From Planctomycetota bacterium (lineage in GTDB: Bacteria > Planctomycetota > GCA-002687715 > CAIWVZ01): 64,000 nucleotides of DNA. Below the pieces are notes generated by a model. It searched no databases. It worked only from the letters and a program-made list of their open reading frames with translations, and was not told the origin of the DNA. The stretch's first letter is position 1. Every line of letters starts with the position of its first letter. Position numbers and translations under genes: made by a program. Location: assembly GCA_044222185.1 (NCBI GenBank), contig JBGANV010000006.1, positions 1 through 64,000 of the forward strand, read 5' to 3'. Positions 1 through 22,802 of the stretch are shown one piece after another.

Positions 1-278
1 CCTCGCTCGCGGTCGTCTGATAGAACTACGCGGCCAGTCCTACCGGACTCGGCACATCGTCAAGTCTCCGAGCATCGAGCCCGCCTCTCACACCGCCAAA
101 ATATCCGGAAAACGACCGCCAGAATTTCCGGAACCCACAACGGATCACGAACGTGGCGCGGCCGCGATGTGAACGCTCAAATGCGAACGTCGCGCGCCGC
201 ACTGCGTCGTTGAACGAGTCCCAGCTCACGAGCGCCCCGCCGCATGGCGACGGGACGCTCGAAGCGAAGAGCTCTCGT

Positions 279-1421
279 TCACGACGTGTCGCCGCCGGCG
301 ATCAGGCTGCGGATCTGCTCGGAGATTCCGCCCGAGCCGAAGACGAACGTCGTCTTCGCCCCGGCGAGCACTTCACGGAGCGACTCCATCTCCTTCAGCT
401 TGAGGAGGACGGGGTTCTCGGCGAGCAACCGGGCCGTATTGGCCTGGCTACGTGCCGCAGCCGTCTCCTCACGCCGACGAATGAGGTTCGCTTCCGCTTC
501 CTTCTCGGCCTGGATCACCTGGTTCAGGATCGCCTTCATCTCACCGGGCAGGATCACGTCCTTCAATCCGCACGTTCGGACGGAGAGTCCGATCTCGGTC
601 GCGCGCGCGGCGATCACCGAGGTGACCTCCGTCGCGATCGCTTCCTTGTCGGCGAGCAGTCCGTCGAGCGTGCGGACGCCGACCGCGGCACGCAGCGCGA
701 GCTGCGCTTCGCGATAGACGGCCTGCGAGAAGTCCGGCGTCGCCGTCGCGGCCTTCACCGGGTCGGTCACCCGATAGGCGACCGACAGGTTCAGCCTCAA
801 CGACACGCGGTCCTTCGTCAGGATCTCCTGTCCCGAGATCTCCGCCGCGATCTCACGTTGGTCGATGCTCGAGACGAGCAGCTTGCCCGCCGACTTCCAC
901 CAGACGTGACGACCCGGCGCCAGTGTCTCCACGAGTTTGCCGTTTCGGAACACGAGTCCCGTCGACGACTCGGGAATCACCGCGACCTCGAGGAACGTCG
1001 CCGCGTCGGGCTGCGAGAGGATCGCGTCCAACTCGGGCGACGTGAACCGCTCGTCCGTGACGTCGAACACGTCGACCTCGATCGTGAACGGCGAGCGCCA
1101 GTAGGCATACCGTCCGGCCGTGAGGAGCGCGTACACGCGTCCATCACGCCGGACGACGGCCCGCTTGGCGTCCGTCAGGTCGACGACCACGAGTTCGGCG
1201 CGAAGCGCCGCATCGTCGAGCAGCGCGTCGAGGTTCTCGTGACACAGACGCGTGTCGAGCGTGCTGACGACGTCGACGCGCGTGCGGCTCGGCGACCAGA
1301 GCCGTTCCCAGATACGGTGCGTGCCCGGCCCGAGGGTCCGGACGAAGCTGCCGTCCCGGAAAAGGAATCCGCGTTGGAACTTGCTGATGCGATAGGTGAT
1401 GGCCATGGAAACACTCCTCAC
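279..1421 (-). CDS. SPFH/band-7 (stomatin/prohibitin/flotillin-like) domain protein
   Basis: 380-aa ORF with two SPFH-like halves (…VFRNGKLVETLAPGRHVWW…; …GLKDVILPGEMKAILNQVIQAEKEAEANLIRRREE… coiled C-tail). The overlapping + strand ORF 153..1532 is Arg-rich antisense junk. Confidence 0.75.
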   Translation of the reverse strand: MRSVSMAITYRISKFQRGFLFRDGSFVRTLGPGTHRIWERLWSPSRTRVDVVSTLDTRLCHENLDALLDDAALRAELVVVDLTDAKRAVVRRDGRVYALLTAGRYAYWRSPFTIEVDVFDVTDERFTSPELDAILSQPDAATFLEVAVIPESSTGLVFRNGKLVETLAPGRHVWWKSAGKLLVSSIDQREIAAEISGQEILTKDRVSLRLNLSVAYRVTDPVKAATATPDFSQAVYREAQLALRAAVGVRTLDGLLADKEAIATEVTSVIAARATEIGLSVRTCGLKDVILPGEMKAILNQVIQAEKEAEANLIRRREETAAARSQANTARLLAENPVLLKLKEMESLREVLAGAKTTFVFGSGGISEQIRSLIAGGDTS

Positions 1422-1744
1422 GGATCAGGCCGACGCACCGACGCGGCGGCCGAAGGTGAATTCGAAAAGTGGGACCCGCCGGCCGGGCGATGGAGCGCCG
1501 ACGCGCCGCGAGGCGGCATCGAGCGTGCGTGACGGCCGGAGGCCGCGCGTGACGTCGCGCACGCGCACTCACGGGAATGCGGCGTGGCGACGCGCGCGCG
1601 GCGCGACCTCACGGACGGCTCGACGGCGAGCTTCGCGGCGTAGGGCCGGCGCGCACCTCGCGCGATCGCGAGTTGCGCGTCGACCGACGCACGATCGACC
1701 GACCGGCGGATCACCGGTCAAGTTCCACAGACTTGTGCTCCTAT

Positions 1745-1862
1745 CCGGGAGCGTCGGGGGGAGTCGAACCCCGGCCTTGCGGCCTTGCCATTTGTGGCAG
1801 GAATTGAACCTGCAACCGCGCCCGTCAGGGCGTGCTCTACCCTTGAGCTACACGTCTTCGTC
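1745..1862 (-). tRNA. tRNA-like locus: degenerate tRNA (canonical D-arm, TpsiC-arm) followed by GNRA hairpin and a second TpsiC-arm/3' fragment; anticodon not resolvable
   Basis: On the minus strand, in order: GTAGCTCAAGGGTAGAGCA (D-arm); CGCCC-TGAC-GGGCG (hairpin with only a 4-nt loop, so no valid 7-nt anticodon loop); GCAGGTTCAATTCCTGC (T-arm); GGCCGCAAGGCC (GNRA hairpin); CGGGGTTCGACTCCCC (second T-arm) then CGACGCTCC. The acceptor stems do not pair, so this is not an intact canonical tRNA. Confidence 0.35.
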
Positions 1863-2361
1863 ATGTCGAGACCGTGAACGGAACGCGAGTCCGGGAAGTG
1901 GGTGCGCACGCGCCCACTCCGTCTCGTGCCGTCGGTCGACGAAGGTCCTCTCCGCGTTTCTCGTGCGACATCTCCGATGCCGCCGCCAAATGCAGCGGGC
2001 CTCGAAGGTGTCACCTCCGAGGCCCGCGGTTGTTCGTCTCGTGTCGACGATCAGCGTGGGGGAGGTGCGGTGGGACGATGCAAGCCGTGACCCATGGGGT
2101 TCACGACTCGGCGGTCGTTGTCCAGTCGCTTGGTGCACCACGTCATGATCGATCTCCTTTCGCCGAACGCGCACGATTGCGCACTGGCGAGGGCGGGGAA
2201 TTTACAGCGGGATTTCGACGTGTCAAGCGGCGCGGAAAAAATTCGTGCACGCCACCGTTCGCACGCACTCGAGCGTGCATCCCGGACGTCACGCGATCGT
2301 CGTGACGTTCCCGTGACGCGACCGGTCGCGGTCGATCCGTAGGATTCACACGGAGCCATTC

Positions 2362-3501
2362 ATGCGCGTTTTCACCATGATCGTGTTCGCATGCGTTGCG
2401 ATCGTCGCGCAGGACGTGACGTGGACGGCGACGGATTTCACCGAGGGGCCCCGACTCGTCTTTCGTCACCAGGTCGCCGTCGATGCCGAGACGATGAACG
2501 TCCACGAGATGATCGCGCCCGGCATCGACGCGGTCCCGCGGACGTTCGCGCGGACGCCGTTGGCGATGATTCCGCAACTTCGTCTGGACGCGCGTCACCT
2601 CGTGATGAGTGCGGACGCTCCGTTGGGCCGCATCTTCACCGTCGACCTCGCCACGGGCCAGACCGACCTCTTGATCGCAGGACGGGGCGTGCGGGCCCTG
2701 ACCGCGGGCGCGGGCTCCATCGTTTATCGCAACGGTCGCGAGCTGTTCGTCCAAGCGATGCCGCGCAAGACGGAGCGGCCCGCCGTGAGCCTCGGCGCCG
2801 CCATCGCGATTTCGCCGCCGAACTCGGCGGGGTTCGCCGCAATCCTGGGTGAAGTTCCGGCCCACGTCTGGTTCATCAGTCCGGACGGCGGGACGCGCAC
2901 GGACCTCGGCGCGCTCGACGGCGTCCGCGAAACGAGCTTCGGAGTGAGCGTGAAGCTGGCGCCGAATGGACGCCGCGTCGCCGTCGGTGCGCCCATCGAC
3001 CAGATCGGGTGGTGCCTCACCGTGTTCTCGCGCGATGGAGCCAAGCCTGCCCGCGTGCTCGAGAACGTCTCGATCGAAGTCTCGCCGCTCTCCAGTGAGC
3101 TGCCGTCGTTCGAATTCCGCTGGCTCGACGATGCCGTCATCCGATTCTCCGAGACCCGGGTCGAAGAACGTGGGATCCAGGTCGAGGATGGGGAGTTCCA
3201 GTGGGTGGACATCGACGTCGATCGGCGGCAGCGGCTCGCCGAACGTCCCTATGCGAAGCTCGGTCTGCGCCACCAGCCTCCGCCCGAATCGCGGCCCGCC
3301 CGGTCGTTGGCCGGCAGTCGCCCGACTCCGCCCGACCCCGCGGACGCCTCCGAAACGCTGATCGATGCCCGTGGGCGCTGGTCCGCCGTCGTCCATGGGC
3401 CGTTCGTCGAGCACCCGGGGATCGATCTCGTCGATCTCTCGACCCAGGTGAGCCGCCGTGTCTTCGACGGCGTCGCGCTCGACGTGAAGTGGCTGCCTTG
3501 A
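2362..3501 (+). CDS. secreted hypothetical protein (N-terminal signal peptide)
   Basis: 379-aa ORF. N-terminus MRVFTMIVFACVAIVAQD looks like a signal peptide and the rest has protein-like composition. The antisense ORF 2143..3669 is Arg/Pro-rich junk. The stop codon abuts the repeat array. Confidence 0.6.
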   Translation: MRVFTMIVFACVAIVAQDVTWTATDFTEGPRLVFRHQVAVDAETMNVHEMIAPGIDAVPRTFARTPLAMIPQLRLDARHLVMSADAPLGRIFTVDLATGQTDLLIAGRGVRALTAGAGSIVYRNGRELFVQAMPRKTERPAVSLGAAIAISPPNSAGFAAILGEVPAHVWFISPDGGTRTDLGALDGVRETSFGVSVKLAPNGRRVAVGAPIDQIGWCLTVFSRDGAKPARVLENVSIEVSPLSSELPSFEFRWLDDAVIRFSETRVEERGIQVEDGEFQWVDIDVDRRQRLAERPYAKLGLRHQPPPESRPARSLAGSRPTPPDPADASETLIDARGRWSAVVHGPFVEHPGIDLVDLSTQVSRRVFDGVALDVKWLP

Positions 3502-3537
3502 TCGCGGCGGATCGCCGCGCTCCACCTCGTCGCAACC

Positions 3538-4041
3538 GCGGGGAGCGCCAGGCTCCAGCCTGGCCGGACGGCGGGGCTCCAGCCCCGCCCTGCGCGTCGA
3601 ACCCGGATCCCTCATCGCCATGCGAGCGGAAGGTCTCCCGAACGACGTGCGGCGTTGTAGAGCAGCCAACTCGGCATTCCCGGCCGGGCCGAGCCCTGCG
3701 ATCCGGCCGCGTGAAACGCTGCGTTCCGACGATCGCGAAAGCGGGGAGCGCCAGGCTCCAGCCTGGCCGGACGGCGGGGCTCCAGCCCCGCCCCGCGCGT
3801 CGAACCCGGATCCCTCATCGGCATGCGAGCGGAAGGTCTCCCGAACGACGTGCGGCGTTGTGGAGGAGCCAACTCGGCATTCCTGGCCGGGCCGAGCCCT
3901 GCGATCCGGCCGCGTGAAACGCTGCGTTCCGACGATCGCGAAAGCGGGGAGCGCCAGGCTCCAGCCTGGCCGGACGGCGGGGCTCCAGCCCCGCCCCGCG
4001 CGTCGAACCCGGATCCCTCATCGGCATGCGAGCGGAAGGTC
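3538..4041. repeat. tandem array of family-A palindromic element, 203-bp unit x about 2.5 copies (unit starts 3538, 3741, 3944)
   Basis: Near-identical units. Each begins GCGGGGAGCGCCAGGCTCCAGCCTGGCCGGACGGCGGGGCTCCAGCCCCGCC, which forms two hairpins (CCAGGCT-CC-AGCCTGG and GGGGCT-CC-AGCCCC). The array ends in the palindrome GGAAGGTCcgtcgatcGACCTTCC. Confidence 0.85.
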
Positions 4042-4060
4042 CGTCGATCGACCTTCCGCG

Positions 4061-4300
4061 ATGCAGCGGTCGGCCGACGTCGTTGCGATGGTCGGGTTCG
4101 CTTCGTCCGCGACCACGCAGCCAGAAAGCGATCCCATCGACCTTGCGCTCGTGGCGGGGGCGATCGAATCGCGCATCGCATCCGACGGGCGTGTCGGCGG
4201 CCCCGTGTCGTGCGACGAGACGTTCGAGAGCGATCCGGAGTTGTGGTGCCTCCTCGCGCTGCGCCGCATCGCGCCGACGGGCGCCGAGCACGCGGCGAGA
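4061..4300 (+). pseudogene. 3' gene remnant paralogous to the C-terminal part of CDS 5683..6993
   Basis: The translation …VVAMVGFASSATTQPESDPIDLALVAGAIESRIASDGRVGGPVSCDETFESDPELWCLLALRRIAPTGAEHAARL aligns at about 50% identity with …VRAMVGLALSAATERVVDPADLAKLQASIESEITSDGRVTGPVFRGEMFSGEPEMWCLLALSRMEGRTSARTARL. There is no N-terminal part; it begins right after the repeat array. Confidence 0.5.
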
Positions 4301-4579
4301 CTGCCCCGCGGCCGCTCGACCCAACCTTGGAAGCTGCCCACGCGCGCGTGTTTGCCGCCAGGGCGCGCGATCGCGCGTTCGAGCCGCGGCGACCTGCCGG
4401 CTTGCGTCGCCTTGCCCACGCGCGCTCACCCCCGATGCCTGCATTCGAGCGAGAGGCGATCCTGAGGATTGCCGACTCGTTCGACCGCGGGCGAATCCGT
4501 CGTGTACAGTCGCGCGATCACGGTCCGGCGTGACCGGTCGAGCCGGTCATCGAGAACTCGTCGCCATCAGGAGTCCAGG

Positions 4580-5682: not shown

Positions 5683-6993
5683 GTGCCCGTGATGAGAATC
5701 TGCCCCGGACTCTCCGTCGCGCTCGTCGCGCTCGTCGCGGGAAGTGCGACGTCGCGCGCGCAGTCGCCCGAGTCTCGCGGCGTCGACACGCGTCCGACGT
5801 CGAGACCGTCGGTACCGATGATCCTCCTGCGGCAGCAATCGGGGCTGATGGGAGGAGGTTCCTACTCGCTTCGTGTCTTCGACGACGGCCTCGTGAAGTA
5901 CAGCGGCGACGAACGCGCGCTCATCCGACGCGCCGAGGCGCGCCTCGACCGCGCAGACCTCGACCAGGTTCGTCGCCTCGCAAGCCAGGTCACCGATTCC
6001 TACACCAAGCTCGTCGGAACGTGCCCGGCCTGGCTCACGGTGGAAGCCACCGACGCGTCGGGCACGACGCGGACCATGCTCCACCCACGCGGCGGGGGAG
6101 AGGCGGGCCGGATCGCGAAGGAACTCCATGCCGTCGCGCGGACGGAGCGCTGGATGGCCGGAGACGGATATCTCGGCTGGCTCTCCGCGCACCAGGAGGA
6201 TGACGGGTCGTTCAGCTCGTCGGCGTTTCAAGAACGGTGTCGAGGCGGAGGCCGGCCATGTGCGGGTACCGGTCAGCCTGGTCAGGACGTCGCGGTCACG
6301 GCGCTCGCTGCCATCGCGTTCGTCTCTCATGGATCGGGATCGACGAATCCGAGGTTGCTGGCGGCGCAGCGATGGCTCGGTCGCCGCGTCTCCGGGATTC
6401 TGAAAACGGAGCCGCTCGACGTTCGGGCGATGGTCGGGCTCGCGCTGTCGGCGGCCACGGAGCGCGTGGTCGATCCCGCGGATCTCGCGAAGTTGCAGGC
6501 GTCCATCGAATCCGAGATCACGAGCGACGGCCGCGTGACCGGGCCGGTCTTTCGAGGCGAGATGTTCTCGGGTGAGCCCGAGATGTGGTGCCTGCTCGCA
6601 CTCTCCAGGATGGAAGGGCGCACGAGCGCGCGCACCGCACGACTCGAAGGACTCGGCCAACGGATCTGCGTCGGCATGCCGAAGGACGTCGAGCCGGAAC
6701 CCGCGGGGCACGACGAGATCCTGGCGGTCCTCCGGGGGCCGCGCCTCAGTCCGCCGGCGTATCTCTATCTCGCGAACCTGGCCACGTGGTCCGATCTGGG
6801 CTTCGTGCGCACGGCGAAGATCCGAAGCCAGCCCGCGGCCATGGTCGACGCTGCAGGCTGTGAGTGGGGCAGCTTCGAGCCGCGAGGGGACTGGGGCGCG
6901 CACTACGGCCGCGTCGGCACGACCGCGCTCGTCGTCATCGGCGCAGCCGTCGCGCAGTGGTCGACTCCGCTCGCCATGTTCCGCGTGCGGTAA
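5683..6993 (+). CDS. secreted hypothetical protein (paralog family with the 4061..4300 remnant; possible alpha-alpha toroid/PSO-like repeats)
   Basis: 436-aa ORF. Signal peptide MPVMRICPGLSVALVALVAGSATSRAQS. Motifs include …DGSFSSSAFQ…, …ITSDGRVTGPVF… and EMWCLLALSRM. Stop TAA at 6991-6993 directly abuts a family-A repeat. Confidence 0.65.
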   Translation: MPVMRICPGLSVALVALVAGSATSRAQSPESRGVDTRPTSRPSVPMILLRQQSGLMGGGSYSLRVFDDGLVKYSGDERALIRRAEARLDRADLDQVRRLASQVTDSYTKLVGTCPAWLTVEATDASGTTRTMLHPRGGGEAGRIAKELHAVARTERWMAGDGYLGWLSAHQEDDGSFSSSAFQERCRGGGRPCAGTGQPGQDVAVTALAAIAFVSHGSGSTNPRLLAAQRWLGRRVSGILKTEPLDVRAMVGLALSAATERVVDPADLAKLQASIESEITSDGRVTGPVFRGEMFSGEPEMWCLLALSRMEGRTSARTARLEGLGQRICVGMPKDVEPEPAGHDEILAVLRGPRLSPPAYLYLANLATWSDLGFVRTAKIRSQPAAMVDAAGCEWGSFEPRGDWGAHYGRVGTTALVVIGAAVAQWSTPLAMFRVR

Positions 6994-7185
6994 GCGGGAG
7001 CGCCAGGCTCCGCCTGGCTGGACGGCGGGGCTCCAGCCCCGCCACGTGCGTTGGAGCGCATTCCTCATCGGCATGCGAGCGGAGGGTCCGCCGATCGAGG
7101 TGCGGCGTTGGGGAGCGGCCACTCGGCATCTCCGGCAGGGCAGAGCCTTGCCGTCCGGCCGCGTGAAACGCGGTGCTTCGCGTCG
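6994..7185. repeat. single copy of family-A palindromic element between convergent genes
   Basis: GCGGGAGCGCCAGGCTCCGCCTGGCTGGACGGCGGGGCTCCAGCCCCGCC… followed by the same CATCGGCATGCGAGCGGA…GCGTGAAACGC tail seen in the 3538-4041 array. Confidence 0.75.
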
Positions 7186-7189
7186 GCGA

Positions 7190-8056
7190 TCATCCCTTCG
7201 CGCGGATGAACAGCAGGCAGTTGCCGTCGGCGCGCGACGCCGAGGACTGCACGCTCGCCATGAGCAGCTTGCCGTCGTCCGCGGAGACGGTGAACTCGAG
7301 CGTGTTCACGAGACGCGCAGGAGGGATCAGCGAAGGGTTGGTCGGCTGACTCTCCGTCGCCGACGCGAAGCGCTCGATGCGGCACGAGATGCCGAGGCGT
7401 CGCGTCGTCCCCTTGGCGTTGTCGGGAGAGACGCCGAAATCCATCACGGCTTCCTGGAAGCCGCCGAAGGTCTGAGCCCCAGACCGGTCCGTCTGCGTCA
7501 TGGGAATCTGCACCGCTTGCCGGACCTTCCACGGCTTGCCGTCATCCGCGGTGAGCGAGAGCTTCACGATCTCCGTGACGCTGCCCTTGCCGGCCGCATC
7601 GCGAACCTTCGCGAGCACGGCGTCAGCCTCGGTGGGATCGATCACTCCCGTCGACGTGCGTGGGAGTTGAAGTGATCCCTCCGCGCCGGGCGCGAGCATG
7701 AACAGGACGACTTCGTACGCCACGGGCTTGCGCGTCGCTGCGACCTTGCCGTGCGTGGCGGCGACGTCGAGCAGCGCGACGGCCCGCTGCACCGTCGCGA
7801 TCGCCGCGTCATCGCCAGCGACGATGATCGAGTTCGTGCGCGGATCCGCCAGGAGCGTCACGGATCGCCGGTCCTTCTCCCCGAGGAGCTGATGCACCGC
7901 CGGAACCATTTCGTCCGCGACCGCGTACTCGAGCCGCAGCACTTCCGTCTTGCGCGCCCGTGGCTTCTCCACGACAGGTGTCTCGTCCTGCGCAGCCATC
8001 GGTGGAACAGCCGCGAGGAGCATCAGCAAAACCAACGATGTTCGGAATGAGGTCAT
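7190..8056 (-). CDS. periplasmic protein with secretin-N (GspD N1-like) domain; no secretin C-domain
   Basis: Signal peptide MTSFRTSLVLLMLLAAVPPMAAQ. Segment VLRLEYAVADEMVPAVHQLLGEKDRRSVTLLADPRTNSIIVAGDDAAIATVQRAVALLD matches the secretin_N pattern (xLxY…DxRTNSLIV…LD). Confidence 0.55.
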   Translation of the reverse strand: MTSFRTSLVLLMLLAAVPPMAAQDETPVVEKPRARKTEVLRLEYAVADEMVPAVHQLLGEKDRRSVTLLADPRTNSIIVAGDDAAIATVQRAVALLDVAATHGKVAATRKPVAYEVVLFMLAPGAEGSLQLPRTSTGVIDPTEADAVLAKVRDAAGKGSVTEIVKLSLTADDGKPWKVRQAVQIPMTQTDRSGAQTFGGFQEAVMDFGVSPDNAKGTTRRLGISCRIERFASATESQPTNPSLIPPARLVNTLEFTVSADDGKLLMASVQSSASRADGNCLLFIRAKG

Positions 8057-8088: not shown

Positions 8089-10563
8089 TCACGTTCGAAC
8101 CGGCGTTCCGGGCCCGGGAATGGGGACGCGGGCGTAACCCAGCGTATTCCGCCGGCAGGTCCCATGTCCGCGCGCGAGCCAATTGAAACGGGTTCCGGAT
8201 CGGGAACCCGACCCACGACGGCGGCTCGGTCGGGTCGCGGTAGGCGAACGACAGGTGATTCGCCGTCGCGAGGTCGGCGGGGCGTCTGGTGAGCAGGGGT
8301 GGGGGCTGAACCTCGGTCGTCGCGCGCGGAGCGCCAGGTCCACCGCCGCCTCGGCGGGGACTGGCCGGATCGCCGCGCGTCTCGCGCGGGCCAACTGACG
8401 TGGATTGGGGTTCGTTGCGAGATCACTTCTGTCCGCATGATCGTCGATTGGCTCGGTGCACGTCCACGCACTCCGGACCGGACGCCTCGGCTGCGCCTCG
8501 GTCGTCCGGCGATCCTGCCGCTCGTCCTCGCCCCGCTTCGCGGCGCTGCGGTTCGAGCGGCGCTCCGTGCGGCCCCGCGCGGCGATCGCGCTCGGCTCGC
8601 CCACTTCGATTCCGCGACACAGGTCCGGAATGGCGTCGACCGCGAGAATCCCCAGGTTCGCCACGACGCGCGCCGCCCGGGAACGAACCTTCGGCGATGG
8701 CGCCGTGAGCATGCGCCGGACTGCCGGCAGGGCTACGGCCGCCTCGGCGCCCCAGCGGTGCAGCCACGCGAGGATGATGGCTGCGTCGGCCTCGGTGGGC
8801 GACGCGGCGAGGCAGCGCGCGAGTTCCGAGGGCGTCGGTGCCCACGTCATCGGGAGATCCTCGATCATGTCATCCAGGGTCCGTCGCCAATCGCGGTCGA
8901 AGAGCTGACCGCGAGATTCGAGTACCTCGAGGAGCGACCGCGGGTCAGCGCCGGCCTTTGCGACGGCGATGAGGATCGCGCAGAAGCGACCATCGCCGTC
9001 CAGTCGAATCCGGCGGGCAGCCCGGAGAAGGGCGTCGACGGCCGGTCGCAGGCCGGCACGCGCCGCGAGGATGGCGTCCACGACTTCGGGTGCATCGTCG
9101 CCGCTGTCCGCATCGAGTGCTTCGGCAAGTCGCGCGACGACGCCTTCGGGCACGGGGTTCAGCGTGGCCAGCTTGCACAGGGCCCGCAGGCGCTCTTTTG
9201 GAGTCGGGCCCCAGTTGGCGTGTGCCTCCAGCATGGGTCTCACGATGGCTCCACTCGGATCCACGTGTGTCACGACTGTCAGGAGATTGAGCCTCAGTTG
9301 GGGATCGGCGCGGTCGTCGAGCAACGCGATGAGCCTCGGAAGGGCCACGCGGGCGGCTTCCCCCTGTCGGTAGAGCACCGTAAGCCAGTCGTTCAGCGTG
9401 CGGAATTCGTCGCACCAGGTCTCGTCCGGCTTCAGCCGCGTGCGCGCCAGCGCTGCGGTATCGGCCACCTCCGGCAGGAATTCCGCGATCGCCTCCGCGA
9501 GGCCCGGGGCCCGAATCAACTCGTCGCTCACCTCGGAGCCGAGGGCGATGCGGATCTGGCGTTGCACGTCGGAGGCAGCGGACCGATACCACCGGATGAT
9601 CGCCGGGCCGGAGACGCGTCCCGTGGGGTCGGCGCGCAGCAACACCGTCACGACCGCTTCTCGCCCGAATGCGTCCGTCGCAGTGGGCGCGATCGCTTCG
9701 ATTGCGGCGACGATCGACGACGGGTTCGCGCCCACGGCGGCCAAGGCCATGACGAGCACGTTCGCGGTGTTGGCGCGCTCGAAGGTGAAGCGCCCTCTCG
9801 CCAACGCCCGAAGCAACGCCGGAGCGCAGGCGCTCCCCTTGGGACCCAATGCCGCGGCCAGTCGAGCGGCGACCTTCGATTTCGAGTCATCGGCATCGTC
9901 GATCAATGGGATGAGACGAGGGACGAGAGCCGCGCCGCTGGCGTCGATCGCGGCGATGGCTTCGAGGGCGGCCGTGCGTGTCGCGAAGTCTGGCCAGGTC
10001 GTTCGACGAGTGATCGCCAAGAGCGCGGGCCTGGCAGTCGGTCCCAGCCAGTGCAGGATCCGTACGGCATCGGCAGCTTCGGGCTCATCGTTGGTCCGGT
10101 CGAGGGCTGCGGCGAGGGCTGCGACGAAGAGCGACGCGTTGTCGCCGACCGCGGCGCCGACGGCCGCACGGCTTGCGGCGGATGCGGCGTTCGCGTCGAG
10201 CACCGTCACCGCCGCATCGTCGGCCACGGCATCGACCACGTGGCGGATTCCGTGGATCGCGGCCCGACGCACCGTGGGCACGGGATCGGACGCCAGCCGC
10301 AGAAGGTCTGGCAGTCCCGGAACGGCGTGCGCGTCGAACGTCGCGATGTCGATCGCCACGCGCTCGCGCTCCGCGGCATCGGCGGCGGAAGACGCACGCC
10401 CAAGCGTTCTCAGCCGCTCAGCCGGTGATGGCGGAGGTCGCGTGTCGATCTGAGCGGGGACGAGTGATGCCGCCAGGCCCACGAGGCCGATGGCCATGAG
10501 CATCGATCGACGCGTCGAGCGGGCAACGATCGCGAACGCATCACGCGAATCCGAGTTGCGCAT
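8089..10563 (-). CDS. HEAT-repeat (PBS-lyase-like) protein; C-terminal about 170 aa of the ORF is translated family-B repeat (no in-frame stop until 8089)
   Basis: N-terminal signal/TM MLMAIGLVGLAASLVPAQ. Repeated …PDLLRLASDPVPTVRRAAIHGI… HEAT-like units. The real protein probably ends near 8600-8700. The tail RTERRSNRSAAKRGEDERQDRRTTEAQPRRPV is the same repeat-derived peptide seen in the antisense ORF 10796..12541. Confidence 0.6.
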   Translation of the reverse strand: MRNSDSRDAFAIVARSTRRSMLMAIGLVGLAASLVPAQIDTRPPPSPAERLRTLGRASSAADAAERERVAIDIATFDAHAVPGLPDLLRLASDPVPTVRRAAIHGIRHVVDAVADDAAVTVLDANAASAASRAAVGAAVGDNASLFVAALAAALDRTNDEPEAADAVRILHWLGPTARPALLAITRRTTWPDFATRTAALEAIAAIDASGAALVPRLIPLIDDADDSKSKVAARLAAALGPKGSACAPALLRALARGRFTFERANTANVLVMALAAVGANPSSIVAAIEAIAPTATDAFGREAVVTVLLRADPTGRVSGPAIIRWYRSAASDVQRQIRIALGSEVSDELIRAPGLAEAIAEFLPEVADTAALARTRLKPDETWCDEFRTLNDWLTVLYRQGEAARVALPRLIALLDDRADPQLRLNLLTVVTHVDPSGAIVRPMLEAHANWGPTPKERLRALCKLATLNPVPEGVVARLAEALDADSGDDAPEVVDAILAARAGLRPAVDALLRAARRIRLDGDGRFCAILIAVAKAGADPRSLLEVLESRGQLFDRDWRRTLDDMIEDLPMTWAPTPSELARCLAASPTEADAAIILAWLHRWGAEAAVALPAVRRMLTAPSPKVRSRAARVVANLGILAVDAIPDLCRGIEVGEPSAIAARGRTERRSNRSAAKRGEDERQDRRTTEAQPRRPVRSAWTCTEPIDDHADRSDLATNPNPRQLARARRAAIRPVPAEAAVDLALRARRPRFSPHPCSPDAPPTSRRRITCRSPTATRPSRRRGSGSRSGTRFNWLARGHGTCRRNTLGYARVPIPGPGTPVRT
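8325..8577. repeat. family-B repeat element, copy 1 (about 250 bp)
   Basis: GGAGCGCCAGGTCCACCGCCGCCTCGGCGGGGACTGGCCGGATCGCCGCGCGTC…ATGATCGTCGATTGGCTCGGTGCACGTCCACGC…GCGGTTCGAGCGGCGCTCCGTGCGGC is nearly identical to the copies at 10697-10942 and 10995-11236. Confidence 0.75.
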
Positions 10564-10696
10564 CGGAACTCAGGACTCGGCTCGCAGTCACCCTATTCCC
10601 GACGCAGCGAGATCTGCGTTCGTGGGCGACCCTACTGGAATGGGTTTCGGATCGTGAACTCGACCCACGACGGCGGCTCGGTGGGGTCGCGGTCTC

Positions 10697-11236
10697 GGAG
10701 CGCCATGTCCACCGCCGTCACGGCGGGGACTGGCCAGATCGCCGCGCGTCCCGCGCGGGCCAACCGGCGAGGAGTGGGGTTCAGTGCGAGATCACCTACG
10801 TCCGCATGATCGTCGATTGGCACGGTGCACGTCCACGCCCTCCGGACCGGACGCCTCGGCTGCGCCTCGGTCGTCCGGCGATCCTGCCGCTCGTCCTCGC
10901 CCCGCTTCGCGGCGCTGCGGTTCGAGCGGCGCTCCGTGCGGCGTCGCGATTGCGAGATCGAAAGGCGAGTGCCATCTCGACCGGGTCGCGGCTTCGGAGC
11001 GCCACGTCCACCGCCGTCTCGGCGGGGACTGGCCGGATCGCCGCGCGTCCCGCGCGGGCCAACCGGCGAGGAGTGGGGTTCAGTGCGAGATCACCTACGT
11101 CCGCATGATCGTCGATTGGCTCGGTGCACGTCCACGCCCTCCGGACCGGACGCCTCGGCTGCGCCTCGGTCGTCCGGCGATCCTGCCGCTCGTCCTCGCC
11201 CCGCTTCGCGGCGCTGCGGTTCGAGCGGCGCTCCGG
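10697..11236. repeat. family-B repeat element, two tandem copies (10697-10942 and 10995-11236)
   Basis: Direct repeats in the same orientation as copy 1 at 8325-8577. They account for the spurious 5' extension (10784-11467) of the FG-GAP ORF. Confidence 0.8.
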
Positions 11237-11467
11237 TCGGCCTGCGTCTCCTGCTGCGCCGCCAAAGATTCGCCCAGGAGCGCGATCAGCAGGACGGCGC
11301 GTGTCGTGGAGATCGTCATGTCGACCGCCACGATATCCGATGCGCGTGACGACGGGTGCGAACGATATGATGCCGCCTCGCGTCGCGGGCGGCCGGCGGA
11401 GCTGATCGCGGCGGGCGAACGGTCGACGGAGATTCCGGTGATGGAGCGAACGGCTTCGGTGACCCGC

Positions 11468-14419
11468 ATGCGGATCCTCTGCATTCGAGGACTCTTGGCG
11501 GCGATGATTTCGCCCGCGCTGGTTCAGGCTCAGGCGGGATACACCCTCGCCTCCGTGAGCAACCCGTCGGTCCTCAATCTGGATTTTGGGACGAGCGTGG
11601 CGTTCGTCGGAGACGTCGAAGGCGACGGCGTCGAGGACTACGCGGTCGGCGATCGTTACGCGCGCGCCGGCGGATCGGCGAGCGCGGGCGCGATCCACAT
11701 CATCAGCGGTGCGACGGGAGTGACGATCCGCGTGCACGCGGGCGTCGCGGGCGAAGGGCTCGGGGCCTCGGTCGCGGGGCTGGGCGACATCGACCACGAT
11801 GGCGTGCCCGACTACATCGGCGGGGCCCCGGCCGCGAGCCCGGGTGGCCGCGCCTACGCGTGGTCCGGTGCGACGGGCGCGCTGATCCACACGTTCAGCG
11901 GGACTGCGACGGTGGCGTGCATCGTCCCGTTTCCGTGCGCGCCGATCTCGGAGCAGTTGGGCGCGTCCGTCGCCGGGCCGGGAGATCTGAACGGAGACGG
12001 AACGCCGGACATCCTGATCGGAAGCCCGACACTCACGTTGTCGAATGCCGCCATCATGACGGGCGGAGCCCGCGTTTTTTCCGGTGCGAGCGGGGCAGCG
12101 CTTTTCGGCATCAACGGCGGCATCTCGTGGGCCGTGCTTGGCACCTCCGTCGCCGGCGGCGGCGATCTGAATCATGACGGGATCCCGGACATCGTCGTCG
12201 GGATGCCGCGGATTTCGCCGCTGCCGTACGGCAACACGCCGGGGGGCACCGGCTCGATCCACGCCATCGCCGGTGGAACGGGCGCGACGCTCTGGGTCGC
12301 GAGCGGCTCGCAGAGTGACGATCGCTTCGGCACGTCGATCGCGATCGTCGGCGACGTGAACGGGGACGGATCCGACGACGTGGCCGTGGGCGCACCAGGG
12401 TCGAGCCTCGGCGGAGTTCCGACCGTGCGCGTGGTTTCCGGGCAGAACGGGGCGACGCTCTTCAATACGCCAACCCCCGTCGGTGGCGATCGATTCGGCG
12501 CGGCGGTGGCGGCAGCCGGCGATGTCGATGGCGATGGCCATCTCGACGTCCTCGTGGGCGCGCCGCAGGCATTCAGCGGGACCGCGCTGTTCGCCGGCAA
12601 GGTCTACATCCTCAGCGGACTCTCGGGGGCGGTGCTGCGGACATACTCGAGTGCGACGGCTTACGACGCACTCGGGACTTCAGTGGCCGGTTGCCGCTCC
12701 ATCGACGGCGATGGAATCCCCGACGCGTTGATCGCGGCACCGCAAACCGTCGGCGCAGGCGGGCCCGGTCACGTGGAGGTCCGCTCCGGTGCGACGGGCC
12801 TTCCGATCCGCACGCACACGGGCGACCTGGGAATGCTGCGCTCGATCATCACTTCGACGATCGTCGTCGGCGATGTCGACGCAGACGGTCGGCCGGACAT
12901 CGCCGTCGCCATGCAGGACGGAGCGATCGCCGTCATCTCGGGCGCGACCGGGACGGCGATCCGCCGAATCGAGGGCCCACCACTCGCGCCTGGCACCACG
13001 TTCGAACTCGCGCCGCTCGGCGACGTGGATGGTGATGGCGCCGGCGACTTCGCGTCGCTCGCGGTCCTCTCGCTCGGCGGGACCGCGCAGTTGAACGTCG
13101 ATTCCGGCGCCACAGGGATGCCGCTCGCAAGCGTCTCGATCCCACGCTGCGGACTCGATCGAATCTCGCTCGCCGCCATCGCGGACGTGAACGGCGATTC
13201 GCGGAAGGATCTCGTGCTCGGCTTTCCGGCATCACCATCCGTGACGTGCGCGTCGTCAGGGGAGGTGCAGATCCGCTCCGGCGCGACCGGAGCGCTCTTG
13301 CGCTCGATCGCGACGAACCACTCGACCTACGATGGATTCGGGTTCGCGGTGAGCGGCGCCGGCGACCTGGATGGTGATGGAATCACGGACGTGCTCGTCG
13401 GCGCTCCGGCCACGCCGTTCCTCGGCGCGTTTGCAGCGGGCGCCGTCTACGGGTTCTCGACAGCGACGGGCCTGCAGTCGTTCGTCGTGTCAGGCACGTT
13501 GCAGAATCAGACGTTCGGCATCCGCGTGGCGTCGATTGGTGACCTCAACGGTGACGGCATCGCCGAGTTCGCCGCGACGAATCAGTTGAACGTGGCGGGC
13601 ACGTCGCCGGGTTCGGTGGAGGTGTGGTCGCCGCCCGCGGGACTGCTGTTGGCGACGATCGTGAACGCCGTGCCCTCGGAATCCATCGGCCGCGCGATCG
13701 CGGCGGTCGGCGACGCGGACGGAGACGGCGTGCCCGATCTCGCGGTGAGTGCGGGGACTGCGTCCTCCGGCGGAACGACGGCGGCGCGCGTCATCGTCGT
13801 TTCCGGCGCGACGTTCGCGCCCCGTTTCATGGTGCCCGATGTGACGCCCGGAGATCTCTTCGGGTGGACGCTCGCGCCGGCGGGTGACTGGAACGGCGAC
13901 GGCCTTTCCGACGTGATCGGGGGCGTGAGCGCGCTGCCGGGGCAGAGCGCCGTGCGCGTCGTCTCGTTCGCGGGGGTACCAGCCGGGTCGATGGCGGTCG
14001 GCAGCGGCTGCCCGCAGTCGAACGGCGACGTGCCGGTTCTCTCTGCCTTCGGCGGGCAGCCGACTGCGATCACCGGCAACCCGGCGTTCGGATTCGTGGT
14101 GTCGAACGCTCCGCCCGGCGTTCCGGGCGTGCTCGTCGTCGGCGGTTCAATGGCGTCCTGGGGCGGAACGAGCCTCCCACTTTCGCTTTCGAGCGCTGGG
14201 CTTCCCGGTTGCTCTCTCTTCGTGTCTCCGGACGTGCTGATTCCGTTCACGACGTCCACGGGCGTCGCAAGCCACGGATCGAAGTGGCTGTCGCTGCCCG
14301 TGCCGGTCGCACCCTCGCTCGTCGGCGCGCGACTGGCGTTCCAGGCGTACGCCGCCGCATCGACGGCGTCAGCGTTGCCCGGCGCCGTGACCCGCGCCGT
14401 GTCGATCGCGCTGCTCTAA
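11468..14419 (+). CDS. secreted FG-GAP (integrin-alpha-like) repeat protein, about 983 aa
   Basis: Signal peptide MRILCIRGLLAAMISPALVQAQA. More than 12 repeats of …GxSVAxxGDVNGDGxxDxxVGAP… (FG-GAP/VCBS-like). Stop TAA at 14417-14419 is followed immediately by a family-A repeat. Confidence 0.8.
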   Translation: MRILCIRGLLAAMISPALVQAQAGYTLASVSNPSVLNLDFGTSVAFVGDVEGDGVEDYAVGDRYARAGGSASAGAIHIISGATGVTIRVHAGVAGEGLGASVAGLGDIDHDGVPDYIGGAPAASPGGRAYAWSGATGALIHTFSGTATVACIVPFPCAPISEQLGASVAGPGDLNGDGTPDILIGSPTLTLSNAAIMTGGARVFSGASGAALFGINGGISWAVLGTSVAGGGDLNHDGIPDIVVGMPRISPLPYGNTPGGTGSIHAIAGGTGATLWVASGSQSDDRFGTSIAIVGDVNGDGSDDVAVGAPGSSLGGVPTVRVVSGQNGATLFNTPTPVGGDRFGAAVAAAGDVDGDGHLDVLVGAPQAFSGTALFAGKVYILSGLSGAVLRTYSSATAYDALGTSVAGCRSIDGDGIPDALIAAPQTVGAGGPGHVEVRSGATGLPIRTHTGDLGMLRSIITSTIVVGDVDADGRPDIAVAMQDGAIAVISGATGTAIRRIEGPPLAPGTTFELAPLGDVDGDGAGDFASLAVLSLGGTAQLNVDSGATGMPLASVSIPRCGLDRISLAAIADVNGDSRKDLVLGFPASPSVTCASSGEVQIRSGATGALLRSIATNHSTYDGFGFAVSGAGDLDGDGITDVLVGAPATPFLGAFAAGAVYGFSTATGLQSFVVSGTLQNQTFGIRVASIGDLNGDGIAEFAATNQLNVAGTSPGSVEVWSPPAGLLLATIVNAVPSESIGRAIAAVGDADGDGVPDLAVSAGTASSGGTTAARVIVVSGATFAPRFMVPDVTPGDLFGWTLAPAGDWNGDGLSDVIGGVSALPGQSAVRVVSFAGVPAGSMAVGSGCPQSNGDVPVLSAFGGQPTAITGNPAFGFVVSNAPPGVPGVLVVGGSMASWGGTSLPLSLSSAGLPGCSLFVSPDVLIPFTTSTGVASHGSKWLSLPVPVAPSLVGARLAFQAYAAASTASALPGAVTRAVSIALL

Positions 14420-14422
14420 TAC

Positions 14423-14840
14423 GAGGAGCGCCAGGCTCCGCCTGGCCGGACGGGCGGGGCTCCGCCCCGCCCCGAGCGTGGAGAGGTCCTCCGCACCTGA
14501 CGGCTTCATCCGACGACGATCGCCTCCGCCGCATCGGACGCGACACGTCGCCGCGCGTCGATCGCGTCACCGCCGATTCCGGCGCCCCGTGCCCCGCGAA
14601 GCCAACGGGGATTCGTCGACGGCGTATTCGAGGAGCGCCAGGCTCCGCCTGGCCGGACGGGCGGGGCTCCGCCCCGCCCCGAGCGTGGAGAGGTCCTCCG
14701 CACCTGACGGCTCCATCCGACGGCGATCGCCTCCGCCGCATCGGACGCGACACGTCGCCGCGCGTCGATCGCGCTCATCGCCGATTCCGGCAGGGCGGAG
14801 CCCTGCCATCCGGCCGGGTGGAACCCGGCGCTCCGGGCTG
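14423..14840. repeat. family-A palindromic element, two tandem copies (207-bp unit)
   Basis: GAGGAGCGCCAGGCTCCGCCTGGCCGGACGGGCGGGGCTCCGCCCCGCCCCGAGCGTGGAGAGGTCCTCCGCACCTGACGGCT… occurs twice, starting at 14423 and 14630. Confidence 0.8.
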
Positions 14841-17478: not shown

Positions 17479-18317
17479 GGCCGCTCCTCTCCGAGTGTCA
17501 GTTGCTTCAGCCGCGGTCGCTTCCCGAAGCGTTGCGGATGCTGCACGAGGCCTGGCCCGCGATCCCCGTGGCCGGGTGCACGGACCTCTACGTGGCGATG
17601 AACGCCGGCACGCTCGGCGGCGGGCGCTTCGTCGACATCTGGGGTCTCGACGAGCTGCGGCCGATCCGCGTCGTCGGTGACGTGCTCACGATCGGCGCGT
17701 TGGCCACGTGGTCGCAGATCGCGCGGTCGGCGTCCGTGCGCAAGCGCCTGCCGATCCTCGTGGAGGCGGCGCGCCAGATCGGTGGCGTCCAGATCCAGAA
17801 CCGCGGCACGATCGGCGGCAACGTCGCCAATGCGTCACCCGCGGGCGATGGCTTGCCCGTGCTCGCGGTCGCCGACGCGGTCGTCGTCGTCGCCAGCGAA
17901 GCGCACGAGCGGCGCATCCCGTTCGGTTCGTTCTACACCGGGTATCGCAAGACGGCGCTCCTGCCCGGTGAGCTCATCGTCGCCATCGAGATCCCGCCCG
18001 TGGCGGGCAGGCAGTGGTTCCGCAAGGTCGGGACGCGCGCGGCGCAGGCGATCTCCAAGGTCGTCGTCGCCGGCGTTCGCGGCGCGACGCCGCGCCTCGC
18101 CTTCGGCAGCGTGGCGCCGACCGTGATCCGCGTTCCTCGCACCGAGCAGCACCTCGCCGCCGGTGGATCGCTCGCCGACGCGAAGAAGATCCTCCAGTCG
18201 GAGATCACGCCGATCGACGACGTCCGCTCGACGGCCGCGTACCGCCGAGCGGTTTGCGCGAACCTGCTCGAGCGGTTTTGGATCGAGACGTCGGCGTCGG
18301 CGCCTGGCGCGAGGTAG
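17475..18317 (+). CDS. FAD-binding medium subunit (CoxM/XdhB-type)
   Basis: GTG at 17475 overlaps the upstream TGA. FAD-binding motifs AGCTDLYV and IGGNVANASPAGD. C-terminal domain …EITPIDDVRSTAAYRRAVCANLLERFW…. The gene's 3' end is duplicated at 22608-22770. Confidence 0.85.
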   Translation: MRPLLSECQLLQPRSLPEALRMLHEAWPAIPVAGCTDLYVAMNAGTLGGGRFVDIWGLDELRPIRVVGDVLTIGALATWSQIARSASVRKRLPILVEAARQIGGVQIQNRGTIGGNVANASPAGDGLPVLAVADAVVVVASEAHERRIPFGSFYTGYRKTALLPGELIVAIEIPPVAGRQWFRKVGTRAAQAISKVVVAGVRGATPRLAFGSVAPTVIRVPRTEQHLAAGGSLADAKKILQSEITPIDDVRSTAAYRRAVCANLLERFWIETSASAPGAR

Positions 18318-18324
18318 GCGCCGG

Positions 18325-18768
18325 TCACTCCGATCCGTCGGACGTCGCGCCGACGACGCGAAAGCCCTCACGTTCGGCGCACTCGGCAAGCCGTGAATCG
18401 AAAGTCACGAACTCGACTTCCTCTGGCCGGTCGGCGACGGCGTAGAGTGCGGCCGCCAGCTGCAGGGAGTCACCGGCCCTGAGCGGATGGACCTCGAGGA
18501 TGCGCCGCGCGCGCTGAACCACGGCGGCGATGTCGGAGATCTCGACCCATCGTTCCGAGAGCCGTCGAAGAATGTCACGCGCCGCGCGCATCTCAGGCGA
18601 ACCGAGTCCGTGATCGCGCCGTCGGCGGCTGATCGCGGACCAGACCTCGACCGGCGTCAGGCACCACACGGACAGTGACGTGTCGCCCTCGTAGAGGCTC
18701 TCCGATCTCGCCGTGAATGCGTCGCGGACCAGGAGTGGGCAGACGGCCGACGAATCCCAGAACCTCAT
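18325..18768 (-). CDS. vapC: PIN-domain toxin (VapC-like)
   Basis: MRFWDSSAVCPLLV…PLRAGDSLQLAAAL…FVTFDSRLAECAEREG shows the PIN acidic residues. The ORF overlaps the upstream antitoxin ORF by 4 bp. Confidence 0.7.
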   Translation of the reverse strand: MRFWDSSAVCPLLVRDAFTARSESLYEGDTSLSVWCLTPVEVWSAISRRRRDHGLGSPEMRAARDILRRLSERWVEISDIAAVVQRARRILEVHPLRAGDSLQLAAALYAVADRPEEVEFVTFDSRLAECAEREGFRVVGATSDGSE

Positions 18769-22497: not shown

Positions 22498-22607
22498 GGA
22501 TGGCCCATCATGCCCGCTCGTGGCCGATCGGGGTCAGGCGGTTTGGGGGTTCTTGGTTTTCATCGAGCCGGCGGGGGCGTCACGCGGCTAATCCGGCGCG
22601 TCCACGC

Positions 22608-22770
22608 TGGCGGCGCAGGCGATCTCCAAGGTCGTCGTCGCCGGCGTTCGCGGCGCGACGCCGCGGAGATCACGCCGATCGACGACGTCCGCTCGACGGC
22701 CGCGTACCGCCGAGCGGTTTGCGCGAACCTGCTCGAGCGGTTTTGGATCGAGACGTCGGCGTCCGCCGCC
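22608..22770. repeat. duplicated fragment of the FAD-subunit gene 3' end (copy of 18037-18300 with an internal deletion of about 105 bp)
   Basis: GGCGCAGGCGATCTCCAAGGTCGTCGTCGCCGGCGTTCGCGGCGCGACGCCGC|GGAGATCACGCCGATCGACGACGTCCGCTCGACGGCCGCGTACCGCCGAGCGGTTTGCGCGAACCTGCTCGAGCGGTTTTGGATCGAGACGTCGGCGTC is identical to 18041-18093 plus 18200-18300. Confidence 0.85.
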
Positions 22771-22802
22771 GGAGCGGTGCGACCGTCACACGGACGATCC
22801 CA

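Follow-up and report, generated by a model that had tools for sequence, protein, structure and literature searches.

Repetitive extragenic palindromic sequences (REPs), REP doublets forming hairpins (REPINs), bacterial interspersed mosaic elements (BIMEs), and the REP-associated tyrosine transposases (RAYTs) are well described (PMC2817692, PMC3116915, PMC3479197, PMC5581495, PMC6006769). We found repeats that resemble them on a Planctomycetota contig (JBGANV010000006.1, positions 1 to 64,000 of the forward strand; this whole 64-kb stretch is referred to as the window), where a ~203-nt non-coding unit headed by two hairpins recurs at three loci. We assign a probability of roughly 0.8 to the reading that these units are REP/REPIN-type repeats, i.e., non-autonomous, hairpin-forming, extragenic repeats of the kind tied to Y1/HUH RAYTs, arranged in BIME-like clusters; the double-hairpin arrays would then be explained without a new regulatory device. 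With the REP/REPIN and RAYT (TnpA-REP) systems of E. coli and Pseudomonas (Nunvar 2010 PMC2817692; Bertels & Rainey 2011 PMC3116915; Messing 2012 PMC3479197), they share the short G+C-rich extragenic hairpin, the bias toward gene 3' ends, and the inverted doublets, and in loci related to the window family a single Y1/HUH RAYT gene stands between copies of the same repeat (a "REPtron"). They would also extend REP biology. The foot is GGGA-N, whereas classical REPs carry GT[AG]G. In some lineages, including that of the window, each arm comprises two tandem REPs, and in the window the arms are separated by a ~90-nt spacer, the 203-nt unit being about twice the size of a typical REPIN. Foot and loop are kept while the stems covary across very different base compositions and across metagenome-assembled genomes (MAGs) labelled as several phyla, whereas classical families are species- or genus-specific, and the RAYT partner is often nested in type I restriction-modification operons. 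No paper was found in a full-text literature search for the repeat sequence strings.

A direct-repeat search combined with alignment placed six units (u1 to u6), all on the plus strand, at 3538-4075, 6993-7183, and 14421-14838. The G+C content is 66-72% throughout the window, and the 42-nt head of the unit has three exact occurrences versus none expected from 100 shuffles. The first locus is a tandem array, for which Tandem Repeats Finder reported 3538-4041 with a period of 203 nt, 2.5 copies, 98% matches, and no indels, and whose tandem units are 96-98% alike. Its first unit (u1, 3538-3740, plus strand; Tandem Repeats Finder, alignment, and inverted repeats) begins with two REPs in plus orientation, REP-a at 3541-3564 and REP-b at 3567-3590, and continues to an inverted inner REP at 3680-3708 (minus) and a degenerate inverted outer REP at ~3703-3731 (minus); its covariance-model scores are 41.2, 18.9, and 25.3 bits. 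The second (u2, 3741-3943, plus strand; Tandem Repeats Finder, alignment, and covariance model) is 96% identical to u1, with REPs at 3744-3767 (plus), 3770-3793 (plus), and 3883-3911 (minus) and again a degenerate outer REP. The third (u3, 3944 to ~4075, plus strand; alignment and covariance model) contains the head, with REP-a at 3947-3970 and REP-b at 3973-3996, as well as the first part of the middle, lacks the inverted arm, and is diverged from ~4042 onward, where it is closer to u4 than to u1 or u2 (direct repeat 4010-4074, 75%). An inverted-repeat search located a palindrome closing this array at 4032-4059, 28 nt long, with 10-bp arms (GCGGAAGGTC/GACCTTCCGC) and an 8-nt loop; the first arm is part of the repeat unit, and the second is unique sequence.

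The second locus is a single complete unit between convergent genes with stops at 6993 and 7190 (u4, 6993-7183, plus strand; alignment, inverted repeats, fold, and covariance model), with REP-a at 6996-7018 and REP-b at 7021-7044 in its head; of its inverted REPs, the inner one spans 7132-7160 and the outer, degenerate one 7155-7183. The third locus consists of two units that form a direct repeat (14419-14566 versus 14626-14773, 98%). The first of them (u5, 14421-14627, plus strand; alignment and covariance model) has the head (REP-a 14424-14446, REP-b ~14450-14474) and a family-specific middle, ends in 59 nt of unique sequence, and lacks the inverted arm. The other (u6, 14628-14838, plus strand; inverted repeats, fold, and covariance model, 36.1 bits) is a complete palindromic element in which REP-a (14631-14653) and REP-b (~14657-14681) are followed by two inverted REPs, the inner one at 14784-14814 and the outer one, here intact, at 14810-14838.

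Most of what an earlier note had claimed about the repeats themselves is borne out, with corrections. Its ~205-bp element in at least five copies is the ~203-nt unit in six copies, and its 2.5 tandem units at 3538-4041 match the Tandem Repeats Finder result, although that span is too short as the extent of the array, in which u3 runs on in diverged form to ~4075. The two units it placed at 14423-14840 exist as u5 and u6, but alignment shows that they have only the ~55-nt head in common with u1-u4, to which u6 adds a ~60-nt tail that u5 lacks, and that the ~90-nt middles are unrelated. Two perfect palindromes per unit are found in u1-u3 but not in u4-u6, where one or both hairpins have a 3-nt loop, and the separate palindrome at the end of the first array is real but measures 28 nt and not 24.

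A complete unit is a long imperfect palindrome with two tandem ~24-nt hairpin repeats on the 5' side, two inverted copies on the 3' side, and the spacer between them. In u6, the terminal inverted repeats (14632-14665 versus 14801-14834) span 34 nt and are 79% complementary, and the fold of the entire unit has an energy of -141.5 kcal/mol (z = -6.7 versus shuffles); the folds of u2 and u4 have z-scores of -2.3 and -2.7 versus shuffles. A covariance model of the REP matched the window at the three loci only, in the order + + - - within each full unit. By its architecture, each unit would be a compound REPIN, able to fold into four local hairpins or into a single long one. Like the BIMEs of enterobacteria, the window arrays are intergenic clusters of REPs in set orientations with conserved linkers and tandem amplification (2-2.5 units here), but the + + - - order is not a strict alternation of Y and Z REPs, and the linker motifs are unrelated. 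Binding of IHF, DNA gyrase, or Pol I is a further mark of BIMEs. Two other candidate identities for the first array were rejected: a CRISPR-like array, because the "spacers" here are themselves identical and the period is 203 nt, and a coding repeat, which is at odds with the lack of codon periodicity in the array.

The basic module is a REP of ~24 nt with a 5' foot GGGA-N, a G+C-rich stem of 7-8 bp (CGCC-AGGC/GCCT-GGCG), and a TCCN loop. REP-a reads GGGAGCGCC-AGGC-TCCA-GCCT-GGC, and REP-b, which reads CGGACGGCG-GGGC-TCCA-GCCC-CGC, is a diverged copy of the same module in which two stem pairs have changed on both sides (CCAGGC/GCCTGG versus CGGGGC/GCCCCG). The stem is also kept in the hairpins of u4-u6 with the shortened loop (CCAGGC-TCC-GCCTGG, GGGGC-TCC-GCCCC). 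We aligned 56 REP sequences, consisting of the window copies and of inverted partners that had not been chosen by the search pattern. In this alignment, 88.5% of the cells of the 7-bp stem are paired, which drops to 12-48% in slid registers. Compensatory change occurs at five of the seven stem pairs (an A-U to G-C exchange 12 times at one of them), and the observed covariation score was reached by none of 500 shuffles.

Matches to the 21-nt core of the module (GAGCGCCAGGCTCC-N0-1-GCCTGGC) occur in at least 120 metagenome stretches; these originate from soils and sediments, among other sources, and their contigs have G+C fractions of 0.35-0.76. The consensus of the matches is YYYGGGAGCGCCAGGCTCCAGCCTGGC, and the 24-nt REP of u1-u3 is identical to it. 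Among the matches listed, the core lies mostly in inverted pairs 55-400 nt apart; the outer stem (GGCGCTCCC, one mismatch allowed) is matched 30-420 nt downstream of 84 of 142 heads, and 44 non-redundant complete elements are obtained when the full inverted partner is required. Two-REP arms like those of the window occur at no fewer than 11 of these loci, tandem heads also recur (e.g., in loci L112, L144, and L171), and at several loci the complementarity extends into the locus-specific flanks. The elements occur in both orientations and beside unrelated genes. A BLAST search of 72,556 plasmids with a short REPIN gave no match, and a tblastn search with 24 window proteins found no close relatives among the REP-bearing contigs. 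The only conserved neighbour, the xanthine-dehydrogenase-like gene adjoining the third locus, is at most 71% identical to proteins from Acidobacteriota and Planctomycetota MAGs, and none of 80 relative loci (1.3 Mb) contains the REP (up to four mismatches), while the 379-aa protein upstream of the first array has only one distant homologue among 5.8 billion proteins. Over 111-3567, the window is matched identically by a short-read contig of a different data set (run SRR28480390), which ends 3 nt past the first REP hairpin; a contig end at the REP fits a repeated sequence, a break that the local array alone could also explain.

We compared ~1,100 open reading frames (ORFs) of the 120 listed loci all against all. 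The families found were ABC transporters and kinases, as chance predicts, and a single non-housekeeping family, common to four REP loci (six after tblastn), which is Pfam Y1_Tnp. The six Y1/HUH proteins score 82-100 bits against NCBIfam NF047646, "REP-associated tyrosine transposase" (cut-off 80), and their best match in the PDB is 4ER8, TnpA-REP of E. coli. In four of these six motif-ascertained loci, the repeat lies directly beside the RAYT gene. The gene in L113 is bracketed by mirror-image REP clusters (+ + - | gene | + - -), and in L174, L154, and L171 a REP is located 10-40 nt from the gene. A search with the RAYT protein returned 3,904 homologue clusters at E <= 1e-20, with source names that include Flavobacteriales, Anaerolineae, Kryptoniota, Acidiferrum, and Lentisphaerota. 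For a reciprocal test, we picked eight homologue loci by protein identity alone, among them loci from Flavobacteriales, Anaerolineae, Kryptoniota, and Acidiferrum MAGs. In all eight, repeats of this type are present at each end of the gene call, inversely oriented. These repeats keep the foot (Y)GGGA-N-CGCC and the loop TCCY, and their inner stems are compensated in different ways (AATC/GATT, ACGC/GCGT, ATTC/GAAT, and GATC/GATC, e.g., GCCAATC/GATTGGC and GCCACGC/GCGTGGC). The link between this repeat type and a RAYT is a property of the related metagenomic and MAG loci, i.e., of other organisms than the source of the window.

In an alignment of ten RAYT sequences, MPNH[V/A]H, REYWDR, and YIHxNP are invariant, and REP-encoded peptides (GNANLPIG, NREIGVP) are found at the termini and, in several members, also in frame between the HuH and Tyr motifs. 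We observed REP/REPIN copies inside unbroken reading frames at L207 7943-8014 and 11548-11619, L204 10448-10471, L202 597-620, and L174 3488-3509. The L207 copies are REP pairs, of which one separates HsdM_N from N6_Mtase and the other lies inside hsdR; the remaining copies are within the RAYT gene between the HuH and Tyr motifs and encode GNANLPIG- or NREIGVP-like peptides. In the Anaerolineae MAG locus (L204, 13695-20663), a NACHT protein, a reverse transcriptase (RVT_1), and genes resembling those for terminase and capsid come after the RAYT; this phage-like region contains three tandem REPs at 18377-18466. Some short elements, such as L096, had suggested a tRNA-like cloverleaf, which received no support from ARAGORN or Rfam; the RAYT association explains the cloverleaf-like fold of these elements.

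The same loci bear on the possibility that the units are classical miniature inverted-repeat transposable elements (MITEs), i.e., deletion derivatives of an insertion sequence with terminal inverted repeats of ~27-48 bp that are moved in trans by a DDE transposase. Complete units do have terminal inverted repeats, related elements range from 55 to 400 nt, and the same ends enclose different middles, both in u1-u4 versus u5-u6 and in a 265-nt "family B" repeat of the window, which has the same CGGAGCGCC/GGCGCTCCG termini. However, the flanks of the 44 complete elements are inverted complements or unrelated and contain no direct repeats, so no target-site duplication is seen. Nor does any DDE transposase recur in the 650 kb around the 120 listed loci, where the Y1/HUH RAYT is the sole recurrent mobile-element gene. 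The inverted repeats moreover hold hairpins with covarying stems, which is expected for recognition of a folded single strand and not for a double-stranded transposase site. We therefore regard a MITE origin as very unlikely.

"Family B" consists of ~265-nt copies at 8308-8573, 10677-10942, and 10976-11241 that are 89-96% alike, two of them in tandem with a period of 299 nt. Each begins with CGGAGCGCC and a long hairpin and ends with GGCGCTCCG. The outer-stem foot is the same as that of the ~203-nt units, so "family B" may be another element moved by the same enzyme. Copy 1 is located in the 3' part of a HEAT-repeat ORF (8089-10563, minus strand), and copies 2 and 3 both overlap a 1211-aa FG-GAP ORF at its annotated 5' end; the true start of this ORF is probably downstream.

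The three loci of the window begin 2-40 nt past a stop codon. The first REP, at 3541, follows the TGA at 3499-3501 of a plus-strand gene (2362-3501); the REP at 6996 follows the TAA at 6991-6993 of a plus-strand gene (5683-6993); and the REP at 14424 follows the TAA at 14417-14419 of a plus-strand gene (10784-14419). At its other end, the tail of u4 is 7-10 nt from the stop of a minus-strand gene (TCA, 7190-7192). The stops named in the earlier note are correct, and its placement of the copies just 3' of stop codons holds. In the array, G+C is flat across the three codon positions, compared with third-position G+C (GC3) of 0.82-0.88 in the flanking genes; because the array shows no codon-position periodicity, the long ORFs that cross it are spurious, and 3538-4075, 6993-7183, and 14421-14838 are best kept as non-coding repeats in the annotation. 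The gene remnant that the earlier note saw directly after the first array is a short ORF at 4061-4465 (plus strand), which may be a remnant or a small gene; its GC3 is coding-like over ~4050-4350 only, and Pfam gives no match. A protein that starts near 4578 looks secreted and has a signal-peptide-like MMRAAQLILFVSIAVSARVAAQ. Family-wide, the placement was counted with crude GC3-based ORF calls on high-GC loci and one-sided binomial tests. Repeat clusters face gene 3' ends more often than 5' ends (88 versus 55, p = 0.0036) and lie between convergent more often than divergent genes (17 versus 4, p = 0.0036). The median distance to the stop codon is ~25 nt, and the values concentrate at 7-11 nt.

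This placement is also what might be expected of a selected cis-acting RNA element in 3' untranslated regions, such as a hairpin cluster with an mRNA-stabilising or attenuating role, or a small RNA gene, the repetition of which would reflect function and not mobility. The position past the stops, the lean to gene 3' ends across the family, the stable hairpins with covarying stems, and the orientation of the heads (six of six in the window are on the sense strand of the upstream gene) are all in line with such an element. Yet the elements are near-palindromic, so the covariation fits RNA and single-stranded DNA alike and cannot separate the two; the metagenome copies are found in both orientations beside unrelated genes; and the RAYT association accounts for the repetition directly. 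Rfam 15 has nothing in the elements at gathering score, and even at E up to 10 only chance-level matches appear. None of the hairpins is followed by a T-run, and the three terminator-like sites between 3000 and 15500, a count below the shuffle mean, all fall outside the elements; without T-runs, the elements do not fit the pattern of an intrinsic terminator. We thus consider a selected cis-acting RNA element unlikely. The terminator role that the earlier note had proposed finds no support, and of its two suggestions for the nature of the elements, REP/BIME-like or MITE-like, the former stands (G+C-rich hairpin with compensated stem, inverted pairs, extragenic 3' bias, and a RAYT-flanking position in related loci) and the latter is disfavoured.

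Several observations weigh against the REP/REPIN assignment of the window elements. The 5' GT[AG]G guide tetranucleotide that is canonical for classical REPs is absent: every copy has the foot (Y)GGGA-N, and on neither strand does a GT[AG]G adjoin the stem. In u1, u2, and u4, the outer inverted REP is degenerate and falls below the covariance-model threshold. The 64-kb window contains no RAYT gene. All of its copies are confined to 11.3 kb, and scans with up to six mismatches, as well as the covariance model without filters, found no further copy in the other ~50 kb. The linker of the window units occurs in none of the 120 metagenome matches listed, and a 28-mer that includes this window-specific linker (GCGCCAGGCTCCN{0,1}GCCTGGCYGGACGG) has no match in 185,579 species-representative genomes. 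The family-wide 3'-end bias comes from crude ORF calls in which 26 clusters were scored as "inside an ORF", and these may conceal some 5'-end cases, given over-long 5' extensions of the ORFs. The confinement of the copies and the unmatched 28-mer are what a purely local tandem or segmental duplication would produce, the likeness to metagenome motifs then being coincidental. That explanation is extremely unlikely in our view: the 24-nt REP of u1-u3 is exactly the metagenome consensus, the two-REP arm architecture recurs on at least 11 unrelated contigs, and within the window itself the three loci have different flanks and two different middles between the same ends.

If the units are REP/REPIN-type repeats, a RAYT encoded elsewhere in the genome would recognise the foot and hairpin in single-stranded DNA, by analogy with TnpA-REP of E. 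coli and TnpA of IS200/IS605, and by the same analogy would cut and rejoin the DNA beside the hairpin, spreading REPINs into intergenic regions. Copies would persist mainly just 3' of stop codons, where they would be harmless. The arrays of 2-2.5 units would grow by slippage or unequal exchange between repeats, which is consistent with the duplicated 203-nt unit including the linker and part of the left flank; judged from this layout, it is plausible that recombinational activity, as the earlier note had suggested, lies behind the tandem amplification. As a plausible secondary effect, hairpins transcribed at the 3' end of the upstream gene could shield its mRNA from 3' exonucleases.

Among described transposase classes, the closest is probably TnpA-Y1 subclass 2.4 (Quentin et al. 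2018, PMC6006769), which corresponds to RAYT Group 4 (Bertels et al. 2017, PMC5581495) and for which in-frame REP insertion has been called unique (Quentin et al. 2018, PMC6006769). The RAYTs beside window-type REPs carry NH[V/A]H, WQ/WH-REYWDR, and YIHxNP, have ~195-250 aa, and are scattered over several phyla, and the bottom of the stem is a run of consecutive G-C pairs, as in that subclass. The REPs of subclass 2.4, however, have GT[AG]G or a "double-foot" (PMC6006769), and the window family lacks GT[AG]G. The RAYTs of this repeat type appear to fit subclass 2.4 by motif signature and in-frame insertions; a possible alternative is subclass 2.6, with YIH[QN]NP and "atypical secondary structures". 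A further comparison is offered by TIRtrons (TIRYT), which Di Nocera et al. 2013 (PMC3733652) describe as tyrosine-transposase genes within non-GTAG inverted repeats. Some of those repeats are self-complementary or "double palindromic", and their families are moderately abundant and arranged in dimers and clusters. The shared TIRtron motif given there is GGGGWSAS; the window sequence GGGGAGCG fits it at seven of eight positions and the metagenome consensus at fewer.

In six of ~14 RAYT loci examined, the RAYT and its flanking REPs are located within a type I restriction-modification operon, between hsdS and hsdR (L205 7399-13296, L207 7248-13131, L210 5351-11137, L211 5403-11026, L212 5358-11059, and L174 149-8083). 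The five protein-ascertained loci (L205/L206, L207/L208, L210, L211, and L212) form one operon family, with HsdM 79-91%, HsdR 74-86%, and RAYT 50-69% identical. The motif-ascertained L174 has a RAYT that is 58-63% identical to those five and occupies the same slot in an unrelated type I operon (HsdM and HsdR 25-28% identical). The Flavobacteriales locus has an HsdR-like gene 4 kb from the RAYT. Keyword searches of the literature listed no paper linking RAYTs to type I operons. The slot in these operons could explain how one REP lineage reached distant phyla. We tentatively suggest, while considering it doubtful, that a single lineage (foot GGGA-N-CGCC, loop TCCN, and freely covarying inner stem pairs) and its RAYT are common to distant phyla by way of a REPtron carried between hsdS and hsdR in mobile type I operons, seeding REPINs in each new host. 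If true, this would be a horizontally spreading REP/RAYT system, unlike the vertically inherited, species-specific ones described for Pseudomonas and enterobacteria, and would bear on whether REPIN-RAYT systems, as symbionts of their genomes, are passed on by vertical inheritance only. It might also indicate that a Y1/HUH nuclease and type I restriction are functionally linked.

The window has further features. On the minus strand at 1794-1853, between the Band_7 gene and the gene of the 379-aa protein, Rfam matches a tRNA with 37.5 bits (model positions 5-66 of 71) where ARAGORN predicts none; the match may be a tRNA fragment or a pseudogene. Two segments, of 62 and 113 nt, at 18033-18311 and 22604-22776 are duplicated with 96-97% identity, ~4.5 kb apart. 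An 808-aa protein encoded at 38079-40505 (plus strand), near many large ORFs without a Pfam match, combines kinase-like and LanC-like domains, the architecture of class III/IV lanthipeptide synthetases. Within the ORF at 49900-51813, a 12-nt unit (CCGGCGCAGGGT) is repeated 9.2 times with 97% identity at 50078-50188 and forms an in-frame coding repeat of four residues.

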